Shown one piece after another: positions 4,574-55,288 of a stretch of DNA of 64,000 nt. Positions within the stretch are counted from its first letter, which is position 1. Every line of letters begins with the position of its first letter. Both the position numbers and the translations under genes were made by a program. The notes beneath the pieces were generated by a model. It was not told the DNA's origin and did no database searches. It saw nothing but the letters and a program-made list of their open reading frames with translations. The stretch is from a virus: the IMG/VR virus record IMGVR_UViG_3300042516_003452, positions 20,493 to 84,492 of that record. One strand, 5' to 3'.

Positions 4574-4690
4574 TTATTCTCCTACCCAATTTGAGTCTGC
4601 GCGGAGACCAGGAACAAAGACAGCTTGTAGTGCAACAACAAGACTGAGTTTGGTAGTCAGGCGTTTGACAAAATTAGGGCAAAGAATCAT
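4574..4690 (-). CDS. Small signal-peptide-like ORF (38 aa)
   Basis: Hand translation: MILCPNFVKRLTTKLSLVVALQAVFVPGLRADSNWVGE. Confidence 0.45.
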   Translation of the reverse strand: MILCPNFVKRLTTKLSLVVALQAVFVPGLRADSNWVGE

Positions 4691-4744: not shown

Positions 4745-4771
4745 TTGGACTTACATGCTGAGCAATGCCAA
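4745..4771 (-). ncRNA. GG-CA/GUAAGU-CC internal-loop hairpin, copy 1
   Basis: Minus strand TTGG-CA-TTGCTCAGCAT-GTAAGT-CCAA; four more copies on the plus strand. Confidence 0.65.
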
Positions 4772-22718: not shown

Positions 22719-25658
22719 TTAGCGAATACGACGTTTTGCGGCAGCTTGTGACATTAACCGATTACCGAAGTTTTGAAGCTGAGAACCAGAGAGGCCATAA
22801 CGCCTAATGGTTTCAGACTCAGATAACTGACCAATGCCACCCGGTACAGAACCTAGACCTAATCCTAATTCCTGTTTACCACGGACGACCTGTCCTCCTG
22901 GAGTTAAATTAGCAGCCAACGCGAATTGATTGCGTTGTGCACCTTGACTAAGAGAACGTGGTTCCATAGAGACTTGGAGTTGGCTCTCTGGGTATTGATA
23001 ATTACCTGTTGAAACTCGGCTGATCGGTCCCATTGCAGGAGCAGCTGGTCCAGTGTAAGGATTCTGCGTACGAGCAAAGGAACCAATATTCATGGTTGGG
23101 ACACGCGTGCGTCCGACCACATTGCCGGTCTGAGGATCACGCACAGGAACAACCTTCATACCTTCACCGGTTTGAGGTGTTTCCATCTGGCTGCGTAGAG
23201 CAGACATCTGAGCACCAGTTACAGTAGAGGGCTCAATGGCAACACCAGTTGTCCTCAGGGGAGCTGTAGAAATACGCGGTGAGTAATAAGCCACATCGAC
23301 ATCAACGCCGCCATCCCCAACGGTCATTGGATCAATTCCACCTTCGCCTCTGACTTGGTATTGACCAGGGATTGGAGCTGCTTTACCGGTGGTTTTGTAA
23401 ATCGGATAGCCGTATGGATTGAAACCAGCAACAACTTTTTTACCTTCTTTGTTGACTTGGATTCTTTCACCAAAGATTGGTGTATCCTTCTCAGTCTTCA
23501 GAAGACCCATCACCATTGCATTGGCCTCTTGTGGGTAATAAAGCTTGCCGGAAGCTTGACTGATTTGTGGCTTAAGAATGGGAACATCGATCCCTTCTTT
23601 ATTCATTAAGTAATCATCAACTGCTTTAACGATGAACCCTTGGTAGTCATAAGCCTCACCGATGTCGGAAAGCGTTTTGCCTTGCGCCAGGCCCAACTCT
23701 AGGGCTTCGGGATTGTTCTCACGTAAGTAGGCAGCTTTAGCGGAAGGATTATTGAAGTAATCCGATTGGGCTCTTTCTGCCACACTTTGGATCGTGGCAC
23801 GGTCCAGGGCCACAGGCTCTGGTTTTGCCGTTTTCAATGTGGTCCAACCAATACGTTGTTCACCTTGCGTTAAAGGTGTACGTCGAATACCAAGCAAGGG
23901 GCCTTCGCCAACAATCACTCGCCGAGACGTTGGTTTGTACGGCTGGCGAATATTTGTGCCAGGAATGGTTTCTCCATACATGATGTCTGGAGCCCAATCC
24001 GAAATAGGTTGGGTTGTGATCTTGGCAGGAACAACATCAACAGCCGTTTCAAAACCACCGATCAACTTATTGGTGCCAACATTGATGTCAGAAGTTTCAA
24101 TACCCATTCCACCCTTGTAACCAACATCTTGCATGCGAAGAAGTTGACCAAAGGAAAGATTGGGATCTTGGCCAAGAACATTAATACCAGCGGTCTGAAT
24201 ACCAGAAGGATCACGGCGCAGTGGAACAACGACATCGGCAGCGCGTAACTGACGTTCAGAGCCAGGAGCAGCAGCTGAAGCTTCTTGAACAACACCAGGA
24301 ATTTGAGTGGTACCTTTGTTAGTGCGTTCTCGGAAAGACTCCGTTTCGATTAAAAGGTTACCGACACCTTCCGTATCGCCATAATCCGTACCCATTTCGC
24401 GATTGGCGGTCATGACCTCAGTTGGGTCATAGTCGTAATCGTCGACTTCTTGGTAGTAGTTACCAGTGTTGGGGTCGTAACTAAAACCTGCTTGCTCTAG
24501 TTTTTCTTTCTGCTGGAGCTGCTTCAGGTTTGTTGTGTCGTGATAGGTCAAGCCCGTACCACCAACGCCAGCGGTCTCAAGCTCTTCCACCAATGCATCC
24601 GGCATGGAAGCACGAGCGCCACCAGCAATCTCCATGGTTGGGTTGCTGCTAACAGCCCCGCCGCGAATTTTGGGAGTTGTACCGAGATACTCAGTGATCC
24701 TTTCGCGTGGTACTTCAGGATTCAAGATTTGATCACGGATTGCCCGTGGATAAGAAGCGGCAGCCATTGTCCGCTCCAAAATTTCCTCTGGTGTAAAGCG
24801 ATTGCGTGCAGTAGCCGATTCAGAAACCGTACTTAAATCAAGAGCGCGACCTGCACTTAAGCCACTACGTGTAGAAACACTACCAATCTTGGCACCACGT
24901 AATAAACGAGCTTGTTGTGGGGTTAGTTCCAGCTCACCAGTTAGATCTGAGACTGAACGTCCGGTTCTTTCATAACGAGGTCCGTAAAATTCCTGAGCCT
25001 GGCGGCCAAGGTTCTCAAGCTGCTCTTCTAATTCCCAAGCGTTACCGCTGACAATTCTTTTGGGAGTTGTTTGAGCAATACGTTGAACTTCTTGGGGGAA
25101 TTGGGAAACTTGCTCAGCAACTTGGGAAGTTCTTGCGATACGGTCAGCATCTCGACTGAAACTTACAAAGTTATTGACTTCACGTTGTTCGGGTATCACA
25201 ATGCCCTTGGAAATAACTTGATCAAGACCTGCGTCAGAGGCTTCGACCTGCTGACTGCGAACTTCATCGATCAGATTCTGCTGAATGCTGGTTAAATCAA
25301 CAGTTGCCTGCGGAATTGCCGTTTCAGGCGCTGCAACTTTGGAAGGACGGACCAAAGGTGCCTGAGATATGGCTCGAAGATCGGATTCACGCGGAACACG
25401 AGGCTTTCCAACGGGAGCAGGCGCCTGACGACCGCGTAATGCCCGGTAACCAAGGGTGCCAGCTCCCAATGCACCTAAGCCCAGGGCTGCGGCACCCAAA
25501 ATTCCCGCCAATGGGGACTCTTCTTGTGGTTGACGGAGCTGATTGGCGCGAAAATCACGAACTGCTGGGGCTAAAGCAGCCCTTTCCTCCGGATCTTCTG
25601 GGTATGGGGTACCAGTGGCGCGGCTGTAGGCAGCAAAATCGGCAGGTGACAGGGCCAT
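22719..25658 (-). CDS. Large putative internal virion protein
   Basis: 979 aa, first gene of the late block; MALSPADFAAYSRATG N-terminus and one hydrophobic helix. Confidence 0.6.
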   Translation of the reverse strand: MALSPADFAAYSRATGTPYPEDPEERAALAPAVRDFRANQLRQPQEESPLAGILGAAALGLGALGAGTLGYRALRGRQAPAPVGKPRVPRESDLRAISQAPLVRPSKVAAPETAIPQATVDLTSIQQNLIDEVRSQQVEASDAGLDQVISKGIVIPEQREVNNFVSFSRDADRIARTSQVAEQVSQFPQEVQRIAQTTPKRIVSGNAWELEEQLENLGRQAQEFYGPRYERTGRSVSDLTGELELTPQQARLLRGAKIGSVSTRSGLSAGRALDLSTVSESATARNRFTPEEILERTMAAASYPRAIRDQILNPEVPRERITEYLGTTPKIRGGAVSSNPTMEIAGGARASMPDALVEELETAGVGGTGLTYHDTTNLKQLQQKEKLEQAGFSYDPNTGNYYQEVDDYDYDPTEVMTANREMGTDYGDTEGVGNLLIETESFRERTNKGTTQIPGVVQEASAAAPGSERQLRAADVVVPLRRDPSGIQTAGINVLGQDPNLSFGQLLRMQDVGYKGGMGIETSDINVGTNKLIGGFETAVDVVPAKITTQPISDWAPDIMYGETIPGTNIRQPYKPTSRRVIVGEGPLLGIRRTPLTQGEQRIGWTTLKTAKPEPVALDRATIQSVAERAQSDYFNNPSAKAAYLRENNPEALELGLAQGKTLSDIGEAYDYQGFIVKAVDDYLMNKEGIDVPILKPQISQASGKLYYPQEANAMVMGLLKTEKDTPIFGERIQVNKEGKKVVAGFNPYGYPIYKTTGKAAPIPGQYQVRGEGGIDPMTVGDGGVDVDVAYYSPRISTAPLRTTGVAIEPSTVTGAQMSALRSQMETPQTGEGMKVVPVRDPQTGNVVGRTRVPTMNIGSFARTQNPYTGPAAPAMGPISRVSTGNYQYPESQLQVSMEPRSLSQGAQRNQFALAANLTPGGQVVRGKQELGLGLGSVPGGIGQLSESETIRRYGLSGSQLQNFGNRLMSQAAAKRRIR

Positions 25659-25778
25659 TGGGTACTTATTAGCTATAAATTCCTTGTTCTTTGTATTTTA
25701 CTGGGGGAAACTTAGGTAAAAAGTGAATACGGTAGACTATTACCAAAAGAATCGCTGAACATCCGGGTTAATAAGGAC

Positions 25779-25988
25779 ATGAACCCTAAGAATGCTTTAG
25801 AAAAAGCAACTGCACTGTACGCAATTGCGGATGCGGCCGAAGATTTAGAGAAAGCTGGGGCTGCACCATTCGAAGTCAAGGCGTTTACGACTGGTGCCAG
25901 GGAAAAATTGGCAGAAGAACGACCTGATTACGACAAATACGCCAAAGCTTACGCTGCTTCTTCCCGTTTTGCACAAAGCAACCAGTAA
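25779..25988 (+). CDS. Hypothetical protein
   Basis: 69 aa with AAGGA SD, followed by a terminator. Confidence 0.65.
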   Translation: MNPKNALEKATALYAIADAAEDLEKAGAAPFEVKAFTTGAREKLAEERPDYDKYAKAYAASSRFAQSNQ

Positions 25989-26018
25989 GTAAAAGCGTTA
26001 ATTAGCACATTGTTAATA

Positions 26019-26045
26019 GCCGGGGCCACAAACCCCGGCATTTTT
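26019..26045 (+). terminator. Intrinsic terminator
   Basis: GCCGGGG-CCACAAA-CCCCGGC-ATTTTT. Confidence 0.7.
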
Positions 26046-26246
26046 GTGTGTTTTCTTGGGTAAAACCCCTGTAAACATGACACTTTTTGCAAGGGCCGCC
26101 CCCTATAGGGGCCAAAAAGGATAAAAAATTTCCTGACGCTTCTCCAACACCCCACGCGACGCGAGTTGCGTATAGAAAAAAAGAAAGGGCGGGGGCTGCG
26201 CATCCGAAGAACGCAGGCAAATCAAGTCAGTTTACCGACAGGAACC

Positions 26247-26546
26247 ATGACTCAGGCCAAAGTTAGCACCAAGGGACAGCGCTGGCAGCATGACTGGCGG
26301 CGTCAAGTAGGCGAGCGCCCAACAGAGAGTAACGCCAAGCTTTTCCACAGCTATGTGGAGATGGCGTATCAGTTGCTCGAGGAGTTTAGCTCAGCCGACT
26401 TTATCTACAGCGAAGTCAGGCAAGTCTGCCAACCCCAGTATCTCTTCCAGGTGGTCTGTGACATGCGAAGCGAGAAGCTAAGCATGCGCATTTGGACCAC
26501 CGAGGAAGGATATAAGGCGGTGTCCATCCACAAAATCCCTGTCTGA
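26247..26546 (+). CDS. Early hypothetical protein
   Basis: AGGA SD then ATG at 26247; 99 aa. Confidence 0.6.
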   Translation: MTQAKVSTKGQRWQHDWRRQVGERPTESNAKLFHSYVEMAYQLLEEFSSADFIYSEVRQVCQPQYLFQVVCDMRSEKLSMRIWTTEEGYKAVSIHKIPV

Positions 26547-26561
26547 TACGTTCGCGTATCG
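26546..26561 (+). repeat. 16-nt UUCG hairpin repeat (second copy at 28412-28427)
   Basis: ATACG-TTCG-CGTATCG exact in both copies. Confidence 0.7.
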
Positions 26562-26641
26562 CGTACGGGAAAGATCTGCTCCCCGCCCCGCACTTGTTCA
26601 TACAGAACAGTTTCGCAACAGGAGCGTGGTCAAGTCACGGT

Positions 26642-26675
26642 CTTGGCAGCTGCAATCCCGCAGCGTAAGTCCAAG
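26642..26675 (+). ncRNA. GG-CA/GUAAGU-CC internal-loop hairpin, copy 2
   Basis: CTTGG-CA-GCTGC-AATCCC-GCAGC-GTAAGT-CCAAG. Confidence 0.7.
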
Positions 26676-26692
26676 CTCACCGGAGTAACACC

Positions 26693-26920
26693 GTGACCAA
26701 CACCATCGCCACCGTCCGTCGTATCGACTGCGTGGACATCACCAAGATGTCACACGAGGAGATCTTCGACATGTGTGGCGTACCAACCCGGCAAGAAGCT
26801 GGCGACAACGTCATGCTTCAGGTCCTCGACCTGCTTGAGCACGGACGTAGCCAGGTACTTACTGCCGAACACCTCCAGGTCATCAAGTCCTACGTGGACG
26901 AGATGCTGGAGACCAACTGA
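26693..26920 (+). CDS. Early hypothetical protein
   Basis: 75 aa, GGAG SD, GTG start. Confidence 0.65.
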   Translation: MTNTIATVRRIDCVDITKMSHEEIFDMCGVPTRQEAGDNVMLQVLDLLEHGRSQVLTAEHLQVIKSYVDEMLETN

Positions 26921-26961
26921 TCCGTTAAAGCGGGCGGCAGGGTGCAAACCCCTGCCCAGTT
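26915..26961 (+). ncRNA. tRNA-elbow-like three-way junction, copy 1
   Basis: AACTG-A-TCCG-TTAAAG-CGGG-C-GGCAGGG-TGCAAAC-CCCTGCC-CAGTT. Confidence 0.7.
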
Positions 26962-27005
26962 ATTGCCTACAGCGGAGATAGGCACCGCACACACAGGAGT
27001 TACCT

Positions 27006-27086
27006 GTGCACTTCACCACCTACGAATCCGTCGCACTCATCACGATCTTCATCGTGAGTTGCGTAATCGGATACGTAACCGACTGA
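27006..27086 (+). CDS. Small membrane peptide (26 aa)
   Basis: AGGAG SD, GTG start, MHFTTYESVALITIFIVSCVIGYVTD. Confidence 0.55.
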   Translation: MHFTTYESVALITIFIVSCVIGYVTD

Positions 27087-27127
27087 TCCGTCTAAGCGGG
27101 TGACCAGGTGCAAACCCTGGTCCAGTC
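27081..27127 (+). ncRNA. tRNA-elbow-like three-way junction, copy 2
   Basis: GACTG-A-TCCG-TCTAAG-CGGG-T-GACCAGG-TGCAAAC-CCTGGTC-CAGTC; compensatory changes relative to copy 1. Confidence 0.7.
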
Positions 27128-27166
27128 ATTGCCACCCACCGAGGGTGGCTTAATTTAACTCAGCTC

Positions 27167-27322
27167 ATGCGAGTTACCTACCAAGATCTGCTGCAGTGGT
27201 TCACTGAACAGCAACTAGATGATGCCGTCATCATTGCCCGTTGCACAGCAGATGCATTCCCTCACCTCAACTACGAGCAGCGACTTGTCAAAGTCCTGGT
27301 CGAAATGAAGACCTACGCCTGA
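27167..27322 (+). CDS. Early hypothetical protein (51 aa)
   Basis: Hand translation: MRVTYQDLLQWFTEQQLDDAV... Confidence 0.55.
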   Translation: MRVTYQDLLQWFTEQQLDDAVIIARCTADAFPHLNYEQRLVKVLVEMKTYA

Positions 27323-27331
27323 TCTACTACC

Positions 27332-27580
27332 ATGCTGATCTATCAACCCAAGTGTGACGACCGTACTCGCGTAGCCTGGTACGGAGGAGAGTCTACACAG
27401 CTACACTTCCAACACCGTGGTATCACCGAGAGGTGGATCGACATCGAGACACGTACTCTCATGGGTGATATCCCAGGTGGTGTGAAGGAACTGCTTGCAG
27501 AAATGCAAGACTTTTACAACTACTGCTACGGCGAGACTTCCATCCTCGACCAAGATAACCTCATCGGCACGATCTTCTGA
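27332..27580 (+). CDS. Early hypothetical protein
   Basis: 82 aa ORF. Confidence 0.6.
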   Translation: MLIYQPKCDDRTRVAWYGGESTQLHFQHRGITERWIDIETRTLMGDIPGGVKELLAEMQDFYNYCYGETSILDQDNLIGTIF

Positions 27581-27609
27581 CTCCTGCTCTAAGGGCCTTC
27601 GGGCCTTTA

Positions 27610-27630
27610 CTGCAGGACTCAACATCCTGC
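27610..27630 (+). repeat. 21-nt hairpin repeat (second copy at 28441-28461)
   Basis: CTGCAGGACTCAACATCCTGC exact in both; stem GCAGGA/TCCTGC. Confidence 0.75.
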
Positions 27631-27655
27631 CGTCCACTCAACTCAGCTCAACACA

Positions 27656-27871
27656 ATGACAGCTCTTAACTTCCGCAAGAACGTGCGTGAGTTTATGCCT
27701 TGGGCCATCAGTGCTAGCCAGACTACCGCTCGTGTAGTCACCAAGGCAGTCACTGATACTGCAACCAAGGCCAAGGCTACTGAGAAGCTACATGACATCC
27801 GTTGTCGTGCAGCAGCACTCATCATGCCAAACGACATGGCATTCATCATCACTCCTAAGAACAACATCTGA
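27656..27871 (+). CDS. Early hypothetical protein
   Basis: 71 aa after ACTCAACTCA leader. Confidence 0.6.
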   Translation: MTALNFRKNVREFMPWAISASQTTARVVTKAVTDTATKAKATEKLHDIRCRAAALIMPNDMAFIITPKNNI

Positions 27872-27874
27872 CTC

Positions 27875-28084
27875 ATGACTAAGAACCACATGGTTGACTC
27901 TGTGCTTGCCCTCACCATGGGCACTGGCATCGGCTTGTTACTTTCTGTCTTTGGACAGAAGCTACTCAACAAGCATTACGTTGCCAACTGCCACAAGCAA
28001 CCACACCATAACCTCGTGTATGTCGATGGTTTCCTCGGCGACACGTACTACTGCATCAAGAATGCAGACTTTAAGCAGAACTGA
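27875..28084 (+). CDS. Early membrane-anchored protein
   Basis: 69 aa with N-terminal TM helix. Confidence 0.6.
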   Translation: MTKNHMVDSVLALTMGTGIGLLLSVFGQKLLNKHYVANCHKQPHHNLVYVDGFLGDTYYCIKNADFKQN

Positions 28085-28093
28085 AGCCTGCAC

Positions 28094-28399
28094 TTAACCC
28101 TTCCGTACGATCCGCTCTTGACAGAAGCTTGGTTTCCATCGGACTATCAAGCTTCTTTCTGAATCGTATGCATCCCATCCTTCTATCCAGGAAATCTTAG
28201 TGGTGGTGTAATCAACATCACCACGTTGAAAGCCTGGATGTTTAGATGGGTTACGCAATCGATTCCACAGTATTTTGCTTCGACCAATGTACAAGACATT
28301 GTCATTGGCATCAATCAATGCATAGCATCCAGGTTTGGCTGGTATATTTCTGGCGTCTTGCCAGCACACCCACTGCCATTTCCTCGGATCTAGTTCCAT
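28094..28399 (-). CDS. GIY-YIG nuclease
   Basis: PGCYALID...VLYIGRSKILWNRL; antisense to the surrounding early genes. Confidence 0.8.
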   Translation of the reverse strand: MELDPRKWQWVCWQDARNIPAKPGCYALIDANDNVLYIGRSKILWNRLRNPSKHPGFQRGDVDYTTTKISWIEGWDAYDSERSLIVRWKPSFCQERIVRKG

Positions 28400-28489
28400 T
28401 GATCTAGCTTAATACGTTCGCGTATCGTGCGGTGGGTTTTCTGCAGGACTCAACATCCTGCACTCAGTTCACTCAACATCTCAACTCAG

Positions 28490-28684
28490 ATGAAACGTCT
28501 TTACTCCATGGGTAAGAACAGGTACATCACCTTGGATACTTACCACACACACCATGAGTCACTGCGTAGCAAATTGCTACAAGCAATCTTTATCGCCATC
28601 ATTGCATCCATCACTGGTTCTGCAATGGTCGGCGTAGACCTCATTCAACTTCCATCCACTAACAACAATGTATTCACTCGCTGA
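28490..28684 (+). CDS. Early membrane protein
   Basis: MKRLYSMGK..., one TM segment. Confidence 0.55.
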   Translation: MKRLYSMGKNRYITLDTYHTHHESLRSKLLQAIFIAIIASITGSAMVGVDLIQLPSTNNNVFTR

Positions 28685-29018
28685 ACACACCCAAGTTCTA
28701 GAAGCACGTATCAATCGCTTGATCGATAAGCTTCTGGAACACTACCACAAACAGTACGGAGATGGTTGCATCGAATTCAACATTGTGCGTGGCACCAAGT
28801 ATTACAAGATCATCCAGCGCAACGTCATACGTAACAACCTTGGCAGTTACGAAGGCAGCGTCCACGCCTTTATCCATCGTCAATCAGGTGCTGTTTACAA
28901 GCCCGCTTCATGGAAGGCACCAGCCAAACATGTGCGGTACAACCTGTTAGACGATGTGTCTTATGAGACCTGCCTCCTGAAAGCCGACTGGGCTGGATCG
29001 TATTTGTACATGAAGTAA
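28668..29018 (+). CDS. Conserved phage early protein
   Basis: KYYKI...SVHAFI...GAVYKPASWKAPAKHVRYNL motif recalled from other phages. Confidence 0.7.
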   Translation: MYSLAEHTQVLEARINRLIDKLLEHYHKQYGDGCIEFNIVRGTKYYKIIQRNVIRNNLGSYEGSVHAFIHRQSGAVYKPASWKAPAKHVRYNLLDDVSYETCLLKADWAGSYLYMK

Positions 29019-29132
29019 CTACACACTACCTCTGGTGTCCTCACTGCCTGAACCACTACGGCTGGTACTTGCATCCTTGTTTGTACCAGCTATTCTCCAT
29101 CTGCATCCAACGCATTCAACGCAACACGATCC

Positions 29133-29570
29133 ATGGAAGCGCTCAGCCAGCTCGACGTTCACAACCCTGATCACATCAGTGTCATCACTCGCGATGGAAA
29201 GATTACCGTCTCGGTTACCAAGGACGGAGCATCCGTGACCCTTGGCTTTCCTATCCGCAATACATTTGACACTACCCCCCGATTCCCCCTGCAACAACAG
29301 CCAGCACCACAGGTAACGGCTGTTAAGGAGATCCAGGAGACACCTAAAGTTCTCAAGAAGAAGAAGACAAGGGTTAGTCCTGTAGGTAACTGCAAGCTAA
29401 CCCCTGAGAAAGTCAGGAACATTAAGCAAGGTCTTGTTGATCCAGGCGTTGCTAAAGGTTTTGACAGCCGTCAGAAACTTTACGAATGGTTTGCTGACAT
29501 TTATAAGGTGAGCTACCACACCATCTCCAACATTGACAAAGGTCTGGCCTGGAGAGGCGTAAAGATCTAA
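29133..29570 (+). CDS. Protein with C-terminal HTH
   Basis: KLTPEKVRNIK...FADIYKVSYHTISNIDKGLAW. Confidence 0.6.
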   Translation: MEALSQLDVHNPDHISVITRDGKITVSVTKDGASVTLGFPIRNTFDTTPRFPLQQQPAPQVTAVKEIQETPKVLKKKKTRVSPVGNCKLTPEKVRNIKQGLVDPGVAKGFDSRQKLYEWFADIYKVSYHTISNIDKGLAWRGVKI

Positions 29571-29601
29571 CTACCGCCGCTAGTACATCAGTACTACGAC
29601 T

Positions 29602-29629
29602 GGACCTGGACATGTCCTTAAACTGTCCA
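29602..29629 (+). ncRNA. H-type pseudoknot, copy 1
   Basis: GGAC-CTGGACAT-GTCC-TTAAAC-TGTCCA. Confidence 0.75.
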
Positions 29630-29651
29630 TTCCTTTTACTCAGTTCAAACC

Positions 29652-29789
29652 ATGACTCAACTCGATCCCAACTACAACGCTGACTTGCTTGATGCCATGG
29701 CCGACATGGCATACGAACAAGAGCAAGCCATGCGTGAAGAATATGAACTCAACCCACCTGAACAGGAGACTTATGATGACCAAGCATGA
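29652..29789 (+). CDS. Small acidic protein (45 aa)
   Basis: Hand translation: MTQLDPNYNADLLDAMADMAYEQEQAMREEYELNPPEQETYDDQA. Confidence 0.6.
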   Translation: MTQLDPNYNADLLDAMADMAYEQEQAMREEYELNPPEQETYDDQA

Positions 29790-29864
29790 ACACGACGATG
29801 ACATCATCTTGCATGTCATCGTTATCATTTCAATCTTCATTCAAATCATTCTGGAGGCACTCCA

Positions 29865-30233
29865 ATGTCTTACATCTCAGAACTCAAGAAGTTCTACCCC
29901 AAAACTTACAAGGTCCGTTACGCAGTCAACGCCTACAACACTCACAAGTACTTCGAACACGAAGACCCAACGGTCATCACCGTCCACCAAACAACGCTCA
30001 ACTACGGCGGTCCAGAGGAAGGTGGATGGTGGTACCAGCAAGGCAACCCAGTCCTCAGCCACTGCATCTTCTCCAAGAAGCAGGCGATCCAAACCTACGT
30101 CAAGTACTTCGAAGAGTACGAGATCGAAGGTCAGCCCAGTCTTGGAGACACCACAACAAGCTCAAACATTGAGCTAAGTTTCTCCAACGGATACGCTCAA
30201 GTGTATCCTCAGATTCGTCCACACTATTGCTAA
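29865..30233 (+). CDS. Hypothetical protein
   Basis: 122 aa, GGAGG SD, YGGPEEGGWWY motif. Confidence 0.7.
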   Translation: MSYISELKKFYPKTYKVRYAVNAYNTHKYFEHEDPTVITVHQTTLNYGGPEEGGWWYQQGNPVLSHCIFSKKQAIQTYVKYFEEYEIEGQPSLGDTTTSSNIELSFSNGYAQVYPQIRPHYC

Positions 30234-30236
30234 GTC

Positions 30237-30479
30237 ATGCAAGCAACTGCTGTACCAAACCTCAGCATTAATCAACGCAACATCTACATGTATTTCCTGA
30301 ACCACAGGAAGAAGTACGGCAAGACTCCTTGCTTCGTACCAAAGTGTACAACTCAAGTATCAAGGCTTGATCAATATCTCAACGCCTTAACGAAACTTGA
30401 GCAGTACGGATTACTACGCGTTGAACGGTGCAGTGATAACTACACCGGCTGGATCATGACTGAACCTAGACAACACTAG
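30237..30479 (+). CDS. Winged-helix-like hypothetical protein
   Basis: LSINQRNIY...YLNALTKLEQYGLLRVER. Confidence 0.55.
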   Translation: MQATAVPNLSINQRNIYMYFLNHRKKYGKTPCFVPKCTTQVSRLDQYLNALTKLEQYGLLRVERCSDNYTGWIMTEPRQH

Positions 30480-30496
30480 CGTTATACGCACATAAG

Positions 30497-30537
30497 CCTG
30501 GGCATCACCGACGTAAGTACGGTGTGTAAGTCCCAGG
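30497..30537 (+). ncRNA. GG-CA/GUAAGU-CC internal-loop hairpin, copy 3
   Basis: CCTGGG-CA-T-CACCG-ACGTAAGTA-CGGTG-T-GTAAGT-CCCAGG. Confidence 0.7.
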
Positions 30538-30557
30538 ATTCACCTCAACCTAAACCA

Positions 30558-30833
30558 ATGACCTATCCCGAAGTCAACTGGAAGAAGAACGAGTATCACC
30601 AACTGCAAGAGGTGGTGAACCTCCTCAAAGCAATCCAAGAACGTGAGAGCAAGCGCCATCAAATGGACGAGCATCTCACTCCACATACCGCAGATGTGGT
30701 ACTGGAAGTCATAGGCATGCTCGAAGATGAGATCGACTATGACCCAAGTCCTTCCGAAGGGGGCGAACCGCCTATCACACTGGATGAAATGCATACTGCT
30801 GCATGGAAAGAACATCAAGCCATGCATAGCTAA
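30558..30833 (+). CDS. Hypothetical protein
   Basis: MTYPEVNW..., 91 aa. Confidence 0.6.
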   Translation: MTYPEVNWKKNEYHQLQEVVNLLKAIQERESKRHQMDEHLTPHTADVVLEVIGMLEDEIDYDPSPSEGGEPPITLDEMHTAAWKEHQAMHS

Positions 30834-30973
30834 CCCCCCTGCACCCCCCGAAGGGAGTACCAGGAGCTAACCTTCTATTAGATAAGACATACTTATCTGT
30901 TGCTCTCTGTTACTTCCCTTCCTTACCCCTTGACTACCCTGGTAGACTCAACACACTTACTCAACTCATCTCA

Positions 30974-31180
30974 ATGAAAGACAACACTCCTCGCATACCA
31001 GACTCACTGGATATGCAAAGACTTCAAGCCATGCAACTTGTTGCTCGCATGAAGGAAACATCAGATCGTCTCGGCATCGGATTCATCGGGGGCTTTATTG
31101 CCCCCAATGGAGAGAAATTCGTCATGTCCAATATGGACGATGAAGACTACAACGCACTCATGCCGGAGGATCTGAAATGA
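30974..31180 (+). CDS. Hypothetical protein
   Basis: 68 aa after ACTCAACTCA leader. Confidence 0.6.
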   Translation: MKDNTPRIPDSLDMQRLQAMQLVARMKETSDRLGIGFIGGFIAPNGEKFVMSNMDDEDYNALMPEDLK

Positions 31181-31244
31181 ATACCTTATTCATCGCAGTA
31201 CTTTCTGTGATGATTATTTGTGGAACAATCATGATTTTAGAGAA

Positions 31245-31442
31245 ATGACCAAGCGTTTGCCCATCAGCTTTGATCGCACCATCCATGGTGTGAACATCAC
31301 CGAACACGGTGTCAAATCTTATAGCAAAGCAGTGAAGCTTGGTCCTTTCCAAGTAACACTCAATGCTAGTCCGAATGGTGTCAAGGGATCAATCAGTATC
31401 CCTGGCACAGGACTTAGCATTCCAAACATTAAGATAATCTGA
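31245..31442 (+). CDS. DUF4236-like protein
   Basis: KAVKLGPFQVTLNASPNGVKGSISIPGTGLS. Confidence 0.55.
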   Translation: MTKRLPISFDRTIHGVNITEHGVKSYSKAVKLGPFQVTLNASPNGVKGSISIPGTGLSIPNIKII

Positions 31443-31448
31443 AGAATT

Positions 31449-31625
31449 ATGACCTATCAAGAACTTTTATCTCAACTTGAAGTAATGAGTCAAGAACAAT
31501 TAAACATGGATGTAACTGTTTATGTCTGTGATACTGAAGAATATTATGCAATCCAAGATGAAATTGTTTTTGCCACAGAAGAATGTGGCGTACTTGATAT
31601 AGATCATCCCATATTGTATTTGTAA
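31449..31625 (+). CDS. Small acidic protein (58 aa)
   Basis: Hand translation: MTYQELLSQLEVMSQEQLNMDVTVY...LDIDHPILYL; more AT-rich than neighbours. Confidence 0.6.
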   Translation: MTYQELLSQLEVMSQEQLNMDVTVYVCDTEEYYAIQDEIVFATEECGVLDIDHPILYL

Positions 31626-31630
31626 GTAAC

Positions 31631-31656
31631 TGGGCATCCTTACGGTGTAAGTCCCA
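31631..31656 (+). ncRNA. GG-CA/GUAAGU-CC internal-loop hairpin, copy 4
   Basis: TGGG-CA-T-CC-TTAC-GG-T-GTAAGT-CCCA. Confidence 0.65.
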
Positions 31657-31684
31657 AACCTTGTCCACTTACTCAATTCAACTT

Positions 31685-31873
31685 ATGTCTGCTTACACTG
31701 AAGACCTTACCATGTTTGATCGAATTAATCTGGCTGCCTGCGCACAGCGCAGAGCAACAGATAATCTATTTGATTCAAATCGTTGGAATGGCGAGTACGA
31801 CACAGCACGTTTGTGGATGAAGTATCGCCTCATCAAGACCACCACTTATTCGTACATTGACGAAGACTCATGA
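31685..31873 (+). CDS. Hypothetical protein
   Basis: MSAYTEDLTMFDRI... Confidence 0.55.
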   Translation: MSAYTEDLTMFDRINLAACAQRRATDNLFDSNRWNGEYDTARLWMKYRLIKTTTYSYIDEDS

Positions 31874-32127
31874 CTGTCCTTGCAATCGAAGACACCCTAT
31901 TCACTGACACCCATGTCACTGTTACAGCAGTTGTTGACGAAATGCGGTTGCTTTATCACGCAACTCATCTCGACCCTGAAGAGTGGGCTCCTGCATTGTG
32001 TACAACAACTGTTGAACTGGATCCAGAGGAACCAATCCCTCTTGATGAAGATGGCTTCTGTGCCTATCTTGATCAGCTCGATCCTCAATGGGAACTGGTC
32101 GAACGCGATGACTTCGATCTAGATTGA
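31870..32127 (+). CDS. Acidic hypothetical protein
   Basis: 85 aa, ATGA coupling. Confidence 0.6.
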   Translation: MTVLAIEDTLFTDTHVTVTAVVDEMRLLYHATHLDPEEWAPALCTTTVELDPEEPIPLDEDGFCAYLDQLDPQWELVERDDFDLD

Positions 32128-32148
32128 TCGACTAATCATCTGACCAAT

Positions 32149-32176
32149 CGTCCTGGGCATGACGTTAAACTGCCCA
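32149..32176 (+). ncRNA. H-type pseudoknot, copy 2
   Basis: CGTC-CTGGGCAT-GACG-TTAAAC-TGCCCA. Confidence 0.75.
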
Positions 32177-32197
32177 TCCTTTTACCCATTCAAATCA

Positions 32198-33922
32198 ATG
32201 CAATTCCAACTCCCCTCCAACCTGCAAACCGAACTCCTTGCTTATGACCCAACACTGAAGGTGTTGGCTAAGCAGACTAGGACCGCATCAACCAAGAAGG
32301 CTAAGTATCCCCTCGGTAACATTCCGCACCTTATCCCACATAACGTGGTGCGCGAATCAGATCAGCAAGCTGCGATTGATGATATCAACCAGCAGAAAGC
32401 ACCTGATCGTTACAGAGTATTTACCACGCCTGTGGACGTAGCAACTCCACAGGCCAGACTCAAAGTCATTGCCATCTTGTATCACTACGAACAAGTATGG
32501 TACGCAGCATGGCTACCTCCCAAGCAGCAAGCTGATGAGTATGTGTATGGCTATGCCTACGCATTCAAGAACACAGCGGCTGCTGCTAAGACTGCACCCC
32601 ATCACATCTGGACCAGCAAAGACAAGTGCATCGAGCACGAAGGTGCTCGTGGCGTGCAGACCTTTACTTATTCAATGAACATCACCGAGGGTGATGTTCA
32701 ATCAAGTGAAGGTAGTGGCTGGCGTGCCTACCAATGGCAAGCCTTTAATCTTCACTGCCAGAAAGGACGCGAGATTATTGAGCATTGCGTCCGTCCATAC
32801 GAAGCAAGCCTACGGGAAAATATGCCCACATGGTCTGATTCCCGTGGATTGTTTGATCGTATCCGCTGCAAGAACGTCTTTGATGCTGCTGACATTCCTC
32901 CAAAAATGGCCGAGCTTCTTGATCTAGAGCAAGGTCTAACTGTTGATAACTTACTCAATGCAGCAATTGAATTCAACAAGAACCCTAACTTTCCATCATC
33001 AACGTTTTGTGTACTGGAAAGAATCAGTCACATCATTTCCAAGCCAGCAATCAAGAAGCTGCTGCAGGCAGAGCTTGATCGCTGCACACTTGCATACAAC
33101 AACCCTAATAACACTGAGCGCAAGCCAATTACTCAAGGCTTTAGAACCTTTGTCCACGTCATTGATTCCATTGACTGGATCAACAGGCTATGGCCTGACT
33201 GCCCACTTGATTACTACCAAACCTATTACAAAGAACTTCGTTACATCAGACTGAGTCAAGTGCGTACAAGCAGCATTAGCTCCAACTCAAATGCATTTGT
33301 TAGTTGGTTGCGTGAACACATGCCTGTTGCATCGATGTTCACAATGCTGCGCAAACAGCTCGAACAACAAACCTTGACTGGTCGAGATGCGGAGGTTGGC
33401 TATGCACGCTTTAGTTTCTTTGAACTAAATGACACATTTTCCATGGCAATCCGTATCCTTGACCATGGCAAAGAACTTGCACCACCCAAGCGTTGGCGCA
33501 TTGATGACTTCCATGACTATGTGCAAGCTGAATCCTGGAAGATCCAGAACCCTAACGAATCGTTGCGTCAAGATCTATTCCCTGAACCCATCAGGGTTAC
33601 ACGCAATGGTGAGACCTGGTCATTTTTCCAGCCTGTTGACACACATCAACTAGCTATGTGGGGCCAGGCCGTACGCAATTGCGTCGGCTCTGCATCACAC
33701 TATGCTGATGACATCAAGAAGCGTAAGCACTTCATCGTGCTGTGCATGATTGATGGTAAGCCCACATTCACCATCCAGTTGGTGGTTGACATGGGCCTGA
33801 TGTCCGTCAAGCAAATCTCTGGTGTCGCTAACCAGCGGCTCACTGAAGACCAACGTGAGGCTTACACAGAAGCCTTCCGTGAGGTCTTGCAACAACGGGA
33901 GAAGCAGCTACAATCTGCCTGA
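32198..33922 (+). CDS. PcfJ-domain protein
   Basis: C-terminal QLAMWGQAVRNCVGS...KQISGVAN motif; start MQFQLP at 32198. Confidence 0.7.
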   Translation: MQFQLPSNLQTELLAYDPTLKVLAKQTRTASTKKAKYPLGNIPHLIPHNVVRESDQQAAIDDINQQKAPDRYRVFTTPVDVATPQARLKVIAILYHYEQVWYAAWLPPKQQADEYVYGYAYAFKNTAAAAKTAPHHIWTSKDKCIEHEGARGVQTFTYSMNITEGDVQSSEGSGWRAYQWQAFNLHCQKGREIIEHCVRPYEASLRENMPTWSDSRGLFDRIRCKNVFDAADIPPKMAELLDLEQGLTVDNLLNAAIEFNKNPNFPSSTFCVLERISHIISKPAIKKLLQAELDRCTLAYNNPNNTERKPITQGFRTFVHVIDSIDWINRLWPDCPLDYYQTYYKELRYIRLSQVRTSSISSNSNAFVSWLREHMPVASMFTMLRKQLEQQTLTGRDAEVGYARFSFFELNDTFSMAIRILDHGKELAPPKRWRIDDFHDYVQAESWKIQNPNESLRQDLFPEPIRVTRNGETWSFFQPVDTHQLAMWGQAVRNCVGSASHYADDIKKRKHFIVLCMIDGKPTFTIQLVVDMGLMSVKQISGVANQRLTEDQREAYTEAFREVLQQREKQLQSA

Positions 33923-33972
33923 GCCCGCACGGTTTACCAGCCTTAGCCTCGATACTAGGGCTGGTTTCAACT

Positions 33973-34200
33973 ATGACCGACTACACCGATGATCAGCTAC
34001 TCGCTATGGCTATGGCCAACATTGGTGAGTACATCACTGACAACTCACCGCAGTACATCCTGATTGACGAAGATCCTCGCAATGAGGATGACTACGACAC
34101 ATGGGACTATGGCACTGAGCCATTACCCCAAGATCACACTTGGCACTCCACATCAATTGATGTAGAGGTAAGTCCAAGTGACGCAGACGTGACGGAATAG
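33973..34200 (+). CDS. Acidic hypothetical protein (stop lies inside tRNA-Leu)
   Basis: 75 aa, D/E-rich. Confidence 0.5.
   Translation: MTDYTDDQLLAMAMANIGEYITDNSPQYILIDEDPRNEDDYDTWDYGTEPLPQDHTWHSTSIDVEVSPSDADVTE
34137..34180 (+). ncRNA. GG-CA/GUAAGU-CC internal-loop hairpin, copy 5
   Basis: CACTTGG-CA-CTC-C-ACATC-AATT-GATGT-A-GAG-GTAAGT-CCAAGTG, ending 2 nt before tRNA-Leu. Confidence 0.7.
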
Positions 34201-34268
34201 GTATACGTAACGCACTTAAAATGCGTCGGCCATTGGCCTTGCGGGTTCGACTCCCGCCGTCTGCACCA
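34183..34268 (+). tRNA. tRNA-Leu (anticodon TAA)
   Basis: Acceptor GCAGACG/CGTCTGC-A-CCA, anticodon arm ACGCA-CTTAAAA-TGCGT, long variable arm, GGTTCGACTCC T-arm. Confidence 0.95.
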
Positions 34269-34291
34269 ATCCACTTACTCAACTCAAGACC

Positions 34292-34654
34292 ATGCAATTC
34301 TTTGCTGCTTTCAAGTCCCTCATCCCTGAGTTCCATGCTTATTCAGATGAGGACAACCGCTACAACCTTGGTGCCACCTGGACTGCAGCCGATGGCCTGA
34401 AGGACTATCACAACCTGGAGCTACGGTACATCCGTAACTCTGAGCGTCTTGCTCTCCAGGGTGAGCCCTGTCCTGATGGCAGCTGGCGCTACGTCGAGCC
34501 CAGTGGTGCAGTCCATACCATCAGCCCTGAACGTGCTAAGCACTTCATGGAGCAGACACAAGCTCATGCCACACTCATGGTTGGCATGCTTGATAAGTTA
34601 CGAGATGCTGGCATCCTCGATCAGATGGTAGACACCACGGCAGAACCTGCCTAA
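34292..34654 (+). CDS. Hypothetical protein
   Basis: 120 aa after ACTCAACTCA leader. Confidence 0.65.
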   Translation: MQFFAAFKSLIPEFHAYSDEDNRYNLGATWTAADGLKDYHNLELRYIRNSERLALQGEPCPDGSWRYVEPSGAVHTISPERAKHFMEQTQAHATLMVGMLDKLRDAGILDQMVDTTAEPA

Positions 34655-34672
34655 GATCACTGCGGAATGTTC

Positions 34673-34701
34673 GGCCCCTGCGCAAGCGGGGGTCTTTTCT
34701 T
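34673..34701 (+). terminator. Intrinsic terminator
   Basis: GGCCCCTGC-GCAA-GCGGGGGTC-TTTTCTT. Confidence 0.75.
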
Positions 34702-34702
34702 C

Positions 34703-35032
34703 ATGATCACTCCAGCTCAGTCAGAGATAGTTACAGATGTAACTGAACTCATTGCAGATTGTATCCCTGATTCCGAATGGGATCGGGTACGCAATGCAAT
34801 CGTCGAACGCATTGTCGACAACATGCCATCACAAGTTTTGCTGCAGTTAACTGACAGCATCGATAACTTTGATCTGGCTGAACTAATCCTCATTACCCAC
34901 TACAAGGAAGCACCAAATCTTGAGTTGATTGTTGACGCATTCAAACTCATTGGTGCTGAACAAACTGCTGACCTCCTCGACTCACTCAACATTCAACAAG
35001 AGAATGGCATTCCAGAAGGCGATCCTTCCTGA
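34703..35032 (+). CDS. Hypothetical protein
   Basis: MITPAQSEIV..., acidic and helical. Confidence 0.6.
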   Translation: MITPAQSEIVTDVTELIADCIPDSEWDRVRNAIVERIVDNMPSQVLLQLTDSIDNFDLAELILITHYKEAPNLELIVDAFKLIGAEQTADLLDSLNIQQENGIPEGDPS

Positions 35033-38140: not shown

Positions 38141-38172
38141 TCACCTTCACTAACATTCCCGATCAGGAAGAT

Positions 38173-38200
38173 GGACCTAAGTAAGTCCTTAAACTGCTGA
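38173..38200 (+). ncRNA. H-type pseudoknot, copy 3 (weaker P2)
   Basis: GGAC-CTAAGTAA-GTCC-TTAAAC-TGCTGA. Confidence 0.6.
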
Positions 38201-52953: not shown

Positions 52954-53025
52954 TCGGAGATGTAGGGATCGAACCTACGACCCTCTGCTCCCAAAGCAGA
53001 TGCGCTACCGCTGCGCTAATCCCCG
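52954..53025 (-). tRNA. tRNA-Pro (anticodon TGG), CCA not encoded
   Basis: CGGGGAT...TCTGC-TTTGGGA-GCAGA...GGTTCGATCCC...ATCTCCG-A cloverleaf. Confidence 0.93.
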
Positions 53026-53103: not shown

Positions 53104-53655
53104 TTATTCTACAGTTTCATTTGGAGTTTTCCAAAAGTAATCATCACATTCACCAAGGCGACCCCATTTTTCTTCCCGATAATCAATATCCTTATTCAAA
53201 AAATCAATAGCATTCTTTAATGTTTGAAGATTATCTTTTGCATGTCCAAGCATTGTGTTGCAACTGTGACACAAGAGTCCCCTGACTTTGCCTGTTTCGT
53301 GACAATGATCTACGCAAAATGTTTTCTTTGGGCTAGGACTGTTTGTTTTACAGATAGCGCAACAACCTTTTTGAAAATCAAGAATTTGATTGTATCTGCC
53401 TTTCGGTAGTCCATATGAACGCAGGCGATCAAGATCGTTAGCGTGTTCTAGATTGTTTTTGCGCCATCTATTGTAATTTTCTTGATGGCGCTTTTTGTTC
53501 TTTCTTGCCCATTCCCGACTGTACTCATTTGTACAAGCACGGCACCAACTATTCAATCCATCTTTGTTTTTCTTTGCTTTGTTAAAAGCGTCTCTAGATT
53601 TAATCGCTAGGCATTTGGTGCATTTTTTCGTTGGGAGTTTGCCAGAAATAGTCAT
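53104..53655 (-). mobile_element. Free-standing endonuclease VII-family homing endonuclease gene
   Basis: KKCTKC...WCRAC; QKGCCAIC...VDHCHETGKVRGLLCHSCNTMLG; AT-rich; both ends carry a copy of the neighbour's 3' coding segment. Confidence 0.85.
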
Positions 53656-54289
53656 CGCACTCGCCTAAGCGCCCCCATTTTAACGTTCTTTCGGAGTCAA
53701 AGTATCGAGTTGATACCTTAAAGTCTGGCGTTTTCAGCTCATTGTTGGTGAGCGATGGATCAACCATTCGACAACGATTGTTGGGATAAGCGCCAATTTG
53801 ACCGTTGTCCAAAGCCACAATGTTGTGGGACTTATGCTCGTCAGGAAATTCCGCAAAGTAAAAATCTGGTTCGTTCCTGTGAGGATGGTAGTTGTCAACC
53901 GTAAATAAGTATGTGCCCTTCATTACACCAGCACTACGTGTCATAACTTGAAATTCCATGTTGAAGATCAAGTTCTTCTCAATGACCGTAAGCCCGTGAT
54001 CGAACCCATTCCAGAACTGCAGGTCAGTTAGCTCCAGGTCAGGGGTGGGTACTTGAGGTTTGTCAGGGTAATCCGGATCCCAAGCAAGGAATGCACTGAT
54101 GGGAAGCTTGTCGTAAAGAGCGCCATACTCAGTAAGGTACGTCTCAAAATATAAAGCTCGCCCTGTTAAAGACTTACATGTAACCCAGTAGCCAGGGGTG
54201 TACTCACCATGACCATCTCTCAGGTCACGCAGGTATTCGCGCCGTACCCAAACTTTGACTGGCGGTACATTGGCTACAAGAGTTGTCAC
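53600..54289 (-). CDS. Conserved phage hypothetical protein (apparent homing endonuclease target)
   Basis: 229 aa; WVRREYLRD...GALYDKLPISAF...EHKSHN...AYPNNR. Confidence 0.75.
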   Translation of the reverse strand: MTTLVANVPPVKVWVRREYLRDLRDGHGEYTPGYWVTCKSLTGRALYFETYLTEYGALYDKLPISAFLAWDPDYPDKPQVPTPDLELTDLQFWNGFDHGLTVIEKNLIFNMEFQVMTRSAGVMKGTYLFTVDNYHPHRNEPDFYFAEFPDEHKSHNIVALDNGQIGAYPNNRCRMVDPSLTNNELKTPDFKVSTRYFDSERTLKWGRLGECDDYFWQTPNEKMHQMPSD

Positions 54290-54317
54290 AAAAAATCCCG
54301 GTGTATCATGCCGGGAT
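54290..54317 (-). terminator. Intrinsic terminator directly before the GTG start
   Basis: ATCCCGG-CATGATACA-CCGGGAT-TTTTT then GTG. Confidence 0.7.
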
Positions 54318-54415
54318 CATAGCTTCCTTTCACGCTCTTGTGAGCACCACGTTCGTAACGTGGAGGGGTTTTCGACTATTACCCCTAGAGCGGTATTGCT
54401 CCACGTGTCAGCATA
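54318..54415 (-). ncRNA. Structured leader / riboswitch-like or small RNA candidate
   Basis: CGCTCT/AGAGCG closing stem with AGGGGT/ACCCCT and CCACGTT/AACGTGG arms; GAGCA/TGCTC pseudoknot option. Confidence 0.5.
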
Positions 54416-54619
54416 TCAGGATTTAGTGTCGCGATAGCGTCGGGCAGCACGACCTGCTTTCTTTGCTTTCTCAGTGTTTGGTACGAACTGCTTGCCTTCA
54501 CGACTGGCAGCGCGTTTCTTTTGATCCGTCTCCTGACGTTCTTCTTTTGACAATGAGGCCCAAGCCTTTTCAGGTAGGTAACGCTTGGTATATCCTTTTT
54601 GTATAGCTTTGTCTGCCAT
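54416..54619 (-). CDS. C-terminal half of a DUF5872-like protein
   Basis: KRYLPEKAWASLSKEERQETDQKKR...GKQFVPNT. Confidence 0.6.
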   Translation of the reverse strand: MADKAIQKGYTKRYLPEKAWASLSKEERQETDQKKRAASREGKQFVPNTEKAKKAGRAARRYRDTKS

Positions 54620-54906
54620 TACTTACTCTCTTTATATTTCTTGGCGGCGGCTTTAGCTTTGCCACGTTTTTCATATTCGTCCTTTGTCATCCACTTCTCT
54701 TTGCCCCACTTCTCTAAAGACTTCTGTTTTTCTCCTTTGCCACCTTTATATCCACCACCTGCTTCTTTGTATTCCTGTGCAACCAGCTGAGCTTTACGTG
54801 CGCTCCACTGACCAGGCTTACCGCCCTTGGATCCAGCCATCACGCGATCTTTGATGCGTTCGCGTAACTCTGGTTTTGTATACTTATTCGTCTCCTGAGA
54901 CATCAA
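54619..54906 (-). CDS. DUF5872-like protein (N-terminal half)
   Basis: YTKPELRERIK...GGKPGQWSARKAQL...YKEAGGGY. Confidence 0.65.
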   Translation of the reverse strand: MMSQETNKYTKPELRERIKDRVMAGSKGGKPGQWSARKAQLVAQEYKEAGGGYKGGKGEKQKSLEKWGKEKWMTKDEYEKRGKAKAAAKKYKESK

Positions 54907-55075
54907 GATTATTCTTTTTTTCTTCTATTATTTTAGCCCACTTACATGGACGAGCAGACTTAGCCCAATCCCTTGGTGGATTAGGGATCAGGCGTTCCAG
55001 CTGCCAGAAATATTCCTGCAACCGTTCTTGTTCAGTCGGCTGCCTAAATTTCTTTCCGTCCTGCGGCACTGCCAA
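54884..55075 (-). CDS. Hypothetical protein
   Basis: 63 aa ORF. Confidence 0.45.
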   Translation of the reverse strand: MAVPQDGKKFRQPTEQERLQEYFWQLERLIPNPPRDWAKSARPCKWAKIIEEKKNNLDVSGDE

Positions 55076-55244: not shown

Positions 55245-55288
55245 TTCAGATTCCTTTGGTGTCCTTACTATAGGGGTAATGATTAACA

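Follow-up and report, generated by a model that had tools for sequence, protein, structure and literature searches.

Five copies of a small hairpin with a conserved asymmetric internal loop are present in the phage DNA analysed here, a stretch of 64,000 nucleotides (nt) that forms part of the 84,492-base (b) IMG/VR phage record IMGVR_UViG_3300042516_003452 and is called the window throughout. Each copy is laid out as an outer stem closing in GG/CC, the two bases CA, a copy-specific hairpin, GUAAGU, and the 3' arm of the outer stem. Judged from the sequence comparisons described below, this element is a real and undescribed regulatory signal, and its structure, conservation and placement are established by them. 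The function that we favour, with a probability of roughly 0.4, is that of a folded RNA at cistron boundaries, which would be recognised at its loop, direct the processing of phage transcripts and protect their 3' ends; its action at the RNA level, the cut and the reader are what we infer.

Structure and conservation of the element

The pattern GGCA-N(8-38)-GTAAGTCC matches the window five times, against a mean of 0.20 in shuffled sequences, none of which (0/100) reaches five, and the whole 84,492-b record holds the same five matches and no others. An earlier inspection of the window without database searches (the sequence-only reading) had reported five copies, and all of them were recovered on the strands and at the coordinates it gave; the inner hairpin is different in every copy, just as it had described. 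The covariance-model search that it named as a check was made with R1, a model built from 20 short copies; with filters off, the five copies score 30.3-42.1 bits and the next match in the 64 kilobases (kb) scores 10.9 bits. Six further exact GTAAGTCC words occur in the window, five in genes and one intergenic, all of them without the partner arm. A small hairpin at 38165-38188 (+), GGAC-CUAAGUAA-GUCC, likewise holds GTAAGTCC without the GGCA arm; it lies 45 nt before a GP88-family gene (ATG 38234) and is kept in two related loci (L131 and L161, at about 3575-3600). In single-sequence folding, copies 1, 2 and 4 are clearly stabler than shuffles (z -2.3 to -3.6) and copies 3 and 5 are not (z -0.58 and -0.54), and therefore the case rests on comparison with relatives and not on thermodynamics. 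The structure of copy 3 is weak, and an alternative pairing of CUUAC with GUAAG is possible there.

A close DNA search of phage records with the window gave no match, and a distant search led to Synechococcus phage S-EIV1, in which three strong copies of the element are found, one of them with the apical loop C(UUCG)G. A related set of 39 IMG/VR loci was collected with the early protein of 587 amino acids (aa) as bait (43-91% protein identity), and at E<=0.01 R1 detected 153 copies in the window, S-EIV1 and these loci together. In the related loci, every one of the 145 copies is on the early-gene strand, in agreement with the claim of the sequence-only reading that the copies follow the local direction of transcription. 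Five relatives that are complete or nearly complete carry 4-7 copies each, clustered in the early region with one opposite-strand late copy, as in the window, and the density reaches up to 8 copies in one 13.7-kb locus. The outer-stem variant CCUGGG/CCCAGG alone was found in 117 stretches of IMG/VR and in at least 140 stretches from metagenomes. Among cyanobacterial viruses, the S-EIV1-like phages form a widespread lineage, and almost all of their early genes are without annotation; the element is the clearest control signal that they share.

Outside these phages, R1 found nothing convincing in 151 sampled cyanobacterial genomes; four weak matches reached at most 24.9 bits, and the best of them lies inside a gene and is without the loop. 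With Rfam 15, only two tRNAs reach the gathering score in the window, and at E<=1 the 3-kb loci around the copies gave a tRNA, a weak antisense plastid match over the tRNA and nothing else. No description of the motif was found in the literature on S-EIV1, on cyanophage SigF promoters or on GTAAGTCC in phage, as covered by open-access text only and without the S-EIV1 genome paper. Loose patterns, with 14 fixed bases in IMG/VR and with 18 fixed bases in cellular genomes, returned mostly chance matches, and the second was kept as a control only.

Conservation and pairing were counted over 111 distinct sequences that had been chosen and aligned by R1 itself, so that the counts lean towards the model. 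The outer-stem consensus is C-U-K-G-G / C-C-M-A-G over 6-8 base pairs (bp), with C in 107 and U and both G in 111 of the 5' arms. The internal loop is asymmetric (2 x 6) and present in all copies, with C-A opposite R-U-A-A-G-Y. Its 5' side has C in 111 and A in 99 (G 9, C 2, U 1), and its 3' side has G in 99 and A in 12 at R, each base of U-A-A-G in 111, and U in 103 and C in 8 at Y; the closing position is U.U in 69/111 and otherwise G-C, C-G, G.U, A-U or U-A. The sequence-only reading had called the loop invariant and had named its conservation in related phages as a check that could refute the proposal: C and UAAG are indeed kept in every one of the 111 distinct copies, and the A of CA, the first G and the last U vary. 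The invariance of the unpaired C, A and UAAG argues that the loop is read by something. Kink-turns contain tandem G.A pairs after a 3-nt bulge, and the 11-nt tetraloop receptor consists of CCUAAG paired with UAUGG; by inspection the consensus fits neither, as it shares UAAG only and has just C-A on the opposite strand.

Paired cells amount to 89.7% in the 111 distinct copies, compared with 72.4% in column shuffles, of which 0/500 come up to the observed value, and with 17-57% when the partners are slid. Pair 7/73 is GC in 72, UA in 35 and AU in 4 sequences with zero mismatches, pair 4/76 occurs as five pair types, and double changes are seen at 6/9 pairs; in two distant relatives missed by R1, an otherwise fixed U-A pair is changed to C-G. 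This covariation shows that the hairpin forms. Within the window, only one pair (G-C or U-A) and the length of the stem vary, and it is with the relatives that the covariation of the outer stem, claimed from the window, holds. In 118/120 viral matches two or more pairs close the inner segment, as against 27/120 chance matches to a similar pattern in cellular genomes of unrelated taxa. This segment is 8 to 60 nt long, with one peak at 10 and another at 21-22 nt; the upper stem has 2 to 12 bp and the total helix 9 to 20 bp: short copies have an outer stem of 6-7 bp and an inner stem of 2-3 bp, and longer copies total ~18-20 bp. The apical loop is freely variable in length and sequence across copies; in the orthologues of copy 2, CGCCAAC or other sequences stand in place of the second GUAAGU of that copy.

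Several signs suggest that it is the sense strand that folds, and that it does so as RNA. Among 48 four-base apical loops, 10 are GNRA (~1.5 expected), and G.U pairs outnumber A.C by 26 to 8 in the inner helices and by 16 to 0 in the three pairs next to the loop; complete strand specificity and the one UUCG loop point the same way.

Placement of the copies and gene shuffling

An ORF-opening ATG (ORF, open reading frame) lies 16-41 nt past the sixth outer pair in 81 distinct copy-plus-leader cases, and in 64/81 it lies 24-31 nt after the stem. The leaders contain 6% G, are rich in ACUCA repeats and are mostly without a Shine-Dalgarno site; GGAG occurs in the leader of the copy-1 group only. Past C-C-M-A-G, G is present at +1 in 66%, usually as a seventh pair, and U at +3 to +5 in 48-62%. 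The stop codon of the preceding frame, by a crude open-frame rule, is often 0-10 nt before the stem, and the conserved sequence upstream of some copies appears to be the end of the preceding gene, which makes the element mostly intercistronic. The distances of 17, 20 and 28 nt that the sequence-only reading gave for the ends of three copies before GTG 26693, ATG 30558 and ATG 31685 were reproduced, and so was the 2-nt distance of a fourth copy from tRNA-Leu (34183). The copies and their surroundings in the window are listed in Table 1.

Table 1. Copies of the element and features around them (window coordinates).
Feature	Position	Strand	Description
Copy 1	26642..26675	+	outer stem CUUGG/CCAAG, loop CA / GUAAGU; R1 30.8 bits, folding z -2.32
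Copy 1, inner hairpin			16 nt, GCUGC-AAUCCC-GCAGC
Copy 1, downstream			Shine-Dalgarno-like GGAG, then GTG 26693, 17 nt after copy end
Copy 2	30497..30537	+	outer stem CCUGGG/CCCAGG, 21-nt inner hairpin; R1 37.8 bits, z -3.57
Copy 2, flanks			stop 30477-30479 17 nt upstream; ATG 30558 20 nt downstream
Copy 2, apical loop	30513-30520	+	second GUAAGU shown there (ACGUAAGUA)
Leader after copy 2	30538..30557	+	G-poor, up to ATG 30558
Copy 3	31630..31656	+	short outer stem (C)UGGG/CCCA, 10-nt inner hairpin; R1 42.1 bits, z -0.58
Copy 3, downstream			ATG 31685, 28 nt after copy end
Leader after copy 3	31657..31684	+	G-poor; contains ACUUAC, the complement of GUAAGU
Copy 4	34137..34180	+	outer stem CACUUGG/CCAAGUG, 22-nt inner hairpin; R1 30.3 bits, z -3.47
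Copy 4, flanks			within 3' end of ORF 33973-34200; tRNA-Leu begins 2 nt after copy end
tRNA-Leu (anticodon UAA)	34183..34268	+	directly after copy 4
Copy 5	4745..4771	-	outer stem UUGG/CCAA, 11-nt inner hairpin; R1 37.2 bits, z -0.54
Copy 5, upstream			begins 4 nt past stop of 357-aa late gene (4776-5849)
Copy 5, downstream			38-aa ORF ~52 nt on; 227-aa gene 182 nt on
Small hydrophobic ORF, 38 aa (MILCPNFVKRL...)	4574..4690	-	between copy 5 and 227-aa gene; conserved in S-EIV1
tRNA-Pro	52954-53025	-	

The spacing to the tRNA is also kept in relatives. In 36/37 loci with tRNA-Leu(UAA), 3-4 nt separate the end of C-C-M-A-G from the 5' end of the tRNA, though the inner hairpin measures 22 nt or 16 nt depending on the locus. 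The exception (locus L128, 7948-8460) has the hairpin, a 5' fragment of tRNA-Leu, an inserted ORF of ~128 aa, and the intact tRNA ~400 nt further; a group I intron was not detected in this insertion. In the window, the 75-aa ORF at 33973-34200 (+) encodes the 5' arm of copy 4 within a conserved motif, ..W.YG.E.LPQDHTW, and its frame reads through the hairpin and 18 nt into the tRNA.

The late copy had been said to precede a pair formed by a small ORF and a cell-wall hydrolase. The 38-aa ORF is present, and from its sequence it may encode a holin-like small membrane protein; the name hydrolase is unsupported, as the 227-aa gene that follows has no family match in Pfam or PHROG. ACUUAC occurs in 9/81 leaders, as against 1.7 in shuffles. 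A pseudoknot of GUAAGU with this leader sequence was rejected as a general feature, because ACUUAC is missing from most copies and, as judged by eye, does not track the loop variants.

The copies also mark places at which genes have been exchanged. In a comparison of 288 pairs of copies with identical inner hairpins, both flanks are shared in 54, the upstream flank only in 30, the downstream flank only in 28 and neither flank in 56, the remaining 120 being intermediate. In one locus (L177), the upstream gene and hairpin correspond to those of one copy of another locus (L139), and the leader and gene behind them to those of the following L139 copy, an arrangement equal to L139 minus the ORF between the two copies. 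Since the conserved 3' box is repeated, the copies are read as recombination points that shuffle small early genes. Whichever function applies, the element marks the joints where these phages swap small genes and provides an easy marker for transcription units in uncultured cyanophage genomes.

Candidate functions

In the function favoured here, the element would act as a folded RNA between the cistrons of phage transcripts. A trans-acting protein or nuclease would read the loop together with the adjoining conserved pairs, and the inner hairpin would contribute stability and nothing else. The RNA would be cut just 3' of the stem, within the short U-run, and where a tRNA follows, RNase P would make the cut. 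The upstream RNA would be left with a protective 3' hairpin, and the downstream cistron would keep a free, unstructured, G-poor leader of ~25-30 nt for initiation independent of a Shine-Dalgarno site. The intercistronic position is compatible with a processing or stability site, and the folded-RNA function is supported because no sigma-70-like promoter is predicted at any copy: six are predicted in 25500-35000, none of them at a copy. The sequence-only reading had proposed a protein-recognition or processing motif, and the part of its interpretation that calls for a structured, strand-specific element recognised by sequence is borne out by the covariation, the GNRA loops and the excess of G.U over A.C. 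If the element is an RNA processing or binding site, it would be a new structured RNA family and would point to an unknown reader protein.

The element appears related both to intercistronic processing hairpins of phages and to their promoter/stem-loop cassettes. Among the former, the RNase III signals of T7 early mRNA (R0.3-R1.3, with R1.1 as the model) share with it the position of hairpins between co-directional early genes and an asymmetric internal loop that sets the lower stem apart from the upper one. In the T7 sites, the internal loop confines cutting to a single strand, and a protective hairpin is left at the 3' end (PMC1540722). The T7 signals differ in spanning about two helical turns (~20 bp), whereas the helices here have 9-20 bp, and only the longer copies come near that length. 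Conservation of the loop sequence here goes well beyond any known requirement of RNase III, the upper stem can have anything from 2 to 12 bp, one copy lies right next to a tRNA, and cleavage is a prediction. Host RNase III itself is accordingly disfavoured: the short helices of the small copies, the free length of the upper stem and the strict loop sequence count against it.

Several observations weigh against processing of a folded RNA in general. Sequence conservation at the paired bases flanking the loop exceeds what pairing would require (U6, G8, G9, C71 and C72 in 111/111, A74 in 109/111), and the folding energies of sense and antisense strands barely differ (62 vs 45 of 111). Pfam and PHROG revealed no recognisable nuclease or RNA-binding protein in the phage, and as the motif was not found in the 151 cyanobacterial genomes, no host substrate of the same shape is known. 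The smallest copies, with ~9-10 bp, are short for RNase III. Finally, two boxes of the element match a published SigF promoter, a match that this function leaves as a coincidence.

This two-box match makes a promoter-linked function, absent from the sequence-only reading, a serious rival, and we rate it as unlikely. The element would then be a composite of promoter and stem-loop, with T-N-GGCA serving as the -32 box and G-TAAGT-C as the -12 box of a promoter of the SigF type (group 3 sigma) used by the host RNA polymerase; transcription would start just past the outer stem, and the hairpin in read-through RNA would attenuate upstream transcription. The promoter of Synechocystis pilA1, which SigF alone reads, carries TAGGC(A) at -32/-31 and GGTAA(GTT) at -12/-9 (PMC2532724). 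Its boxes, TAGGCA and GGTAAGTT, resemble T-K-GGCA and N-R-TAAG-Y, the invariant letters of the motif being T-K-G-G-C-A and R-T-A-A-G-Y. A match to the two mapped boxes at about eleven positions is, on a rough estimate, unlikely to arise by chance. A start ~7 nt past TAAGYC would produce 5' untranslated regions of ~25 nt and would fall 1-2 nt before the 5' end of the mature tRNA. The copies cluster in the early region, where sigma-70-like matches are rarer than in shuffles (6 vs 10.5 in 25500-35000), and neither an RNA polymerase nor a sigma factor is recognisable in the phage. In the orthologues of copy 1, the inner segment stays at 15-16 nt, a promoter-like spacing, despite four unrelated inner sequences. 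If the element is a SigF-type promoter, early expression of the phage would be linked to the pilus regulon of its host.

Phage cassettes of comparable architecture are known. Promoter-early stem-loops (PeSL) of T4-type phages are repeated intergenic cassettes before small early genes; their stem-loops lie between -35 and -10 or over -10 (PMC2839356), and recombination between copies deletes or swaps ORFs (PMC2839356; PMC4122927). The element shares the repeated intergenic position before small early genes, the stem-loop between or over promoter-like boxes, and the use of copies as recombination points at which ORFs are deleted or swapped. PeSL differ in having a consensus sigma-70 promoter (-35, 16-18 nt, -10) and a Shine-Dalgarno site, whereas the element here is without a sigma-70 match and has variable box spacing, a conserved internal loop and leaders mostly free of Shine-Dalgarno sites. 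An assignment to sigma-70, in which TTGGCA would be -35 and either GTAAGT or TAAGTC would be -10, was rejected because of the absence of the key -7 T, the variable spacing and a scan that gave no matches.

One point against a SigF-type promoter is the spacing of the boxes, which varies between 8 and 60 nt with the two peaks noted above, so that the way in which pilA1 uses its two boxes is not open to most copies. No sigma factor is known to tolerate such a range. The pilA1 promoter has a fixed spacer and an AG-rich region, whereas here the spacer is always a hairpin, the inner segments are not AG-rich, and the first box pairs with bases after the second. If the palindrome were looped out, the boxes would lie too close together, and even as it stands the 10-nt class is too short. 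The first box is half of an outer stem that covaries beyond the boxes, the T of the -32 box is changed to C with a compensating change in distant relatives, and the predicted start region is U-rich. Compared with TAGGC at -32 and GGTAA at -12, the element conserves T-K-GGCA and R-TAAG-Y, with A at the second position in 4/111 and GG before TAAG in 13/111. TAGGCA-N12-18-GGTAAGT was found in 59/301 cyanobacterial genomes, not above a reversed control, so that no host consensus was obtained; the one match inspected is coding. A new promoter architecture would accommodate the spacing: a phage without its own polymerase or sigma factor would use the SigF of the host pilus system through boxes built into a hairpin, which would allow a variable spacer, or an RNA hairpin would mimic an open SigF promoter. 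Such an architecture is quite improbable; in either form, early expression of the phage would be tied to pilus-producing host cells.

A folded RNA that binds a regulator without cleavage draws on the same structural evidence as the processing site, and we regard it as improbable. It could be a translational operator, like those of RegA or coat proteins, or a put- or nut-like elongation site. The tight spacing to ATG (24-31 nt in 64/81) would put the hairpin at the upstream edge of the ribosome footprint, and some leaders hold ACUUAC. For translational control, however, it is awkward that the best-conserved of the copies stands in front of a tRNA, an RNA that is not translated, and that the leader complement is missing from most copies and does not track the loop variants. 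In lambda nut (boxB) and HK022 put, a conserved apical loop or a two-hairpin fold is present, with one site per early operon. The element has a free apical loop, many copies per operon and 4-7 copies per genome in complete relatives, and one copy abuts a tRNA; the put/boxB-like antitermination role suggested in the sequence-only reading thus fits poorly. No candidate binder was identified for this function either.

A single-stranded DNA hairpin for recombination or replication, of the kind found in integron attC sites or at IS200/IS605 ends, would mark the borders of mobile cassettes. attC sites are folded imperfect hairpins at cassette borders with conserved outer pairs, unpaired bases and variable terminal structure, and they act through R''/R' core sites and an integrase. 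The element resembles them in its conserved outer stem, its unpaired spacer, its variable terminal structure and its border position right after the stops of small co-oriented ORFs; the identical hairpins between differing neighbours and the ORF deleted in L177 relative to L139 would also fit. This explanation is nevertheless very improbable, because none of the 90 ORFs scanned shows an integrase, HUH or other recombinase domain and the fixed distances to start codons and tRNA, like the GNRA loops, point to gene expression; the core sequences, with an outer stem of CUKGG/CCMAG, differ from the attC consensus, and ordinary homologous recombination at a repeated box of 12-20 nt explains the shuffling.

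Gene content and other features of the phage

Pfam and PHROG scans recognised a terminase, portal-like and head proteins, a family A DNA polymerase, SSB, ThyX, a primase-helicase and sugar-modifying genes, and no RNA polymerase, sigma factor, RNase or recombinase. A weak sigma region-4 match (12.5 bits) outside the window was rejected; it lies in a 140-aa excisionase-like helix-turn-helix protein and not in a sigma factor. The 587-aa ORF used as bait has a PcfJ-like domain as its sole family match and no match in PDB. The 979-aa protein encoded at 22722-25658 (-), the first gene of the leftward late operon and next to the early region, was examined as a possible polymerase and gave no match in Pfam, PHROG, PDB or Atlas; its 372 homologues, of about 900-1260 aa, are all unnamed, and the N-terminus (MALSPADFYAYSRATG..) is strongly conserved.

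Genes for endonuclease VII, two CAP59-like mannosyltransferases, a DegT-type aminotransferase and GDP-mannose 4,6-dehydratase lie on mixed strands at 53104-59081, a block that probably forms a sugar-modification module. A second type of repeat, TGATCCGTYTAAGCGGG..GGTGCAAACCC..CCAGTYATTGCC, is present at 26918-26967 and 27083-27132 (+), directly 3' of two small ORFs, and probably corresponds to the first RNA family of the sequence-only reading. It forms a GC-rich hairpin around a UGCAAA loop, and the copy at 27083-27132 adjoins a terminator-like hairpin at 27131-27149.

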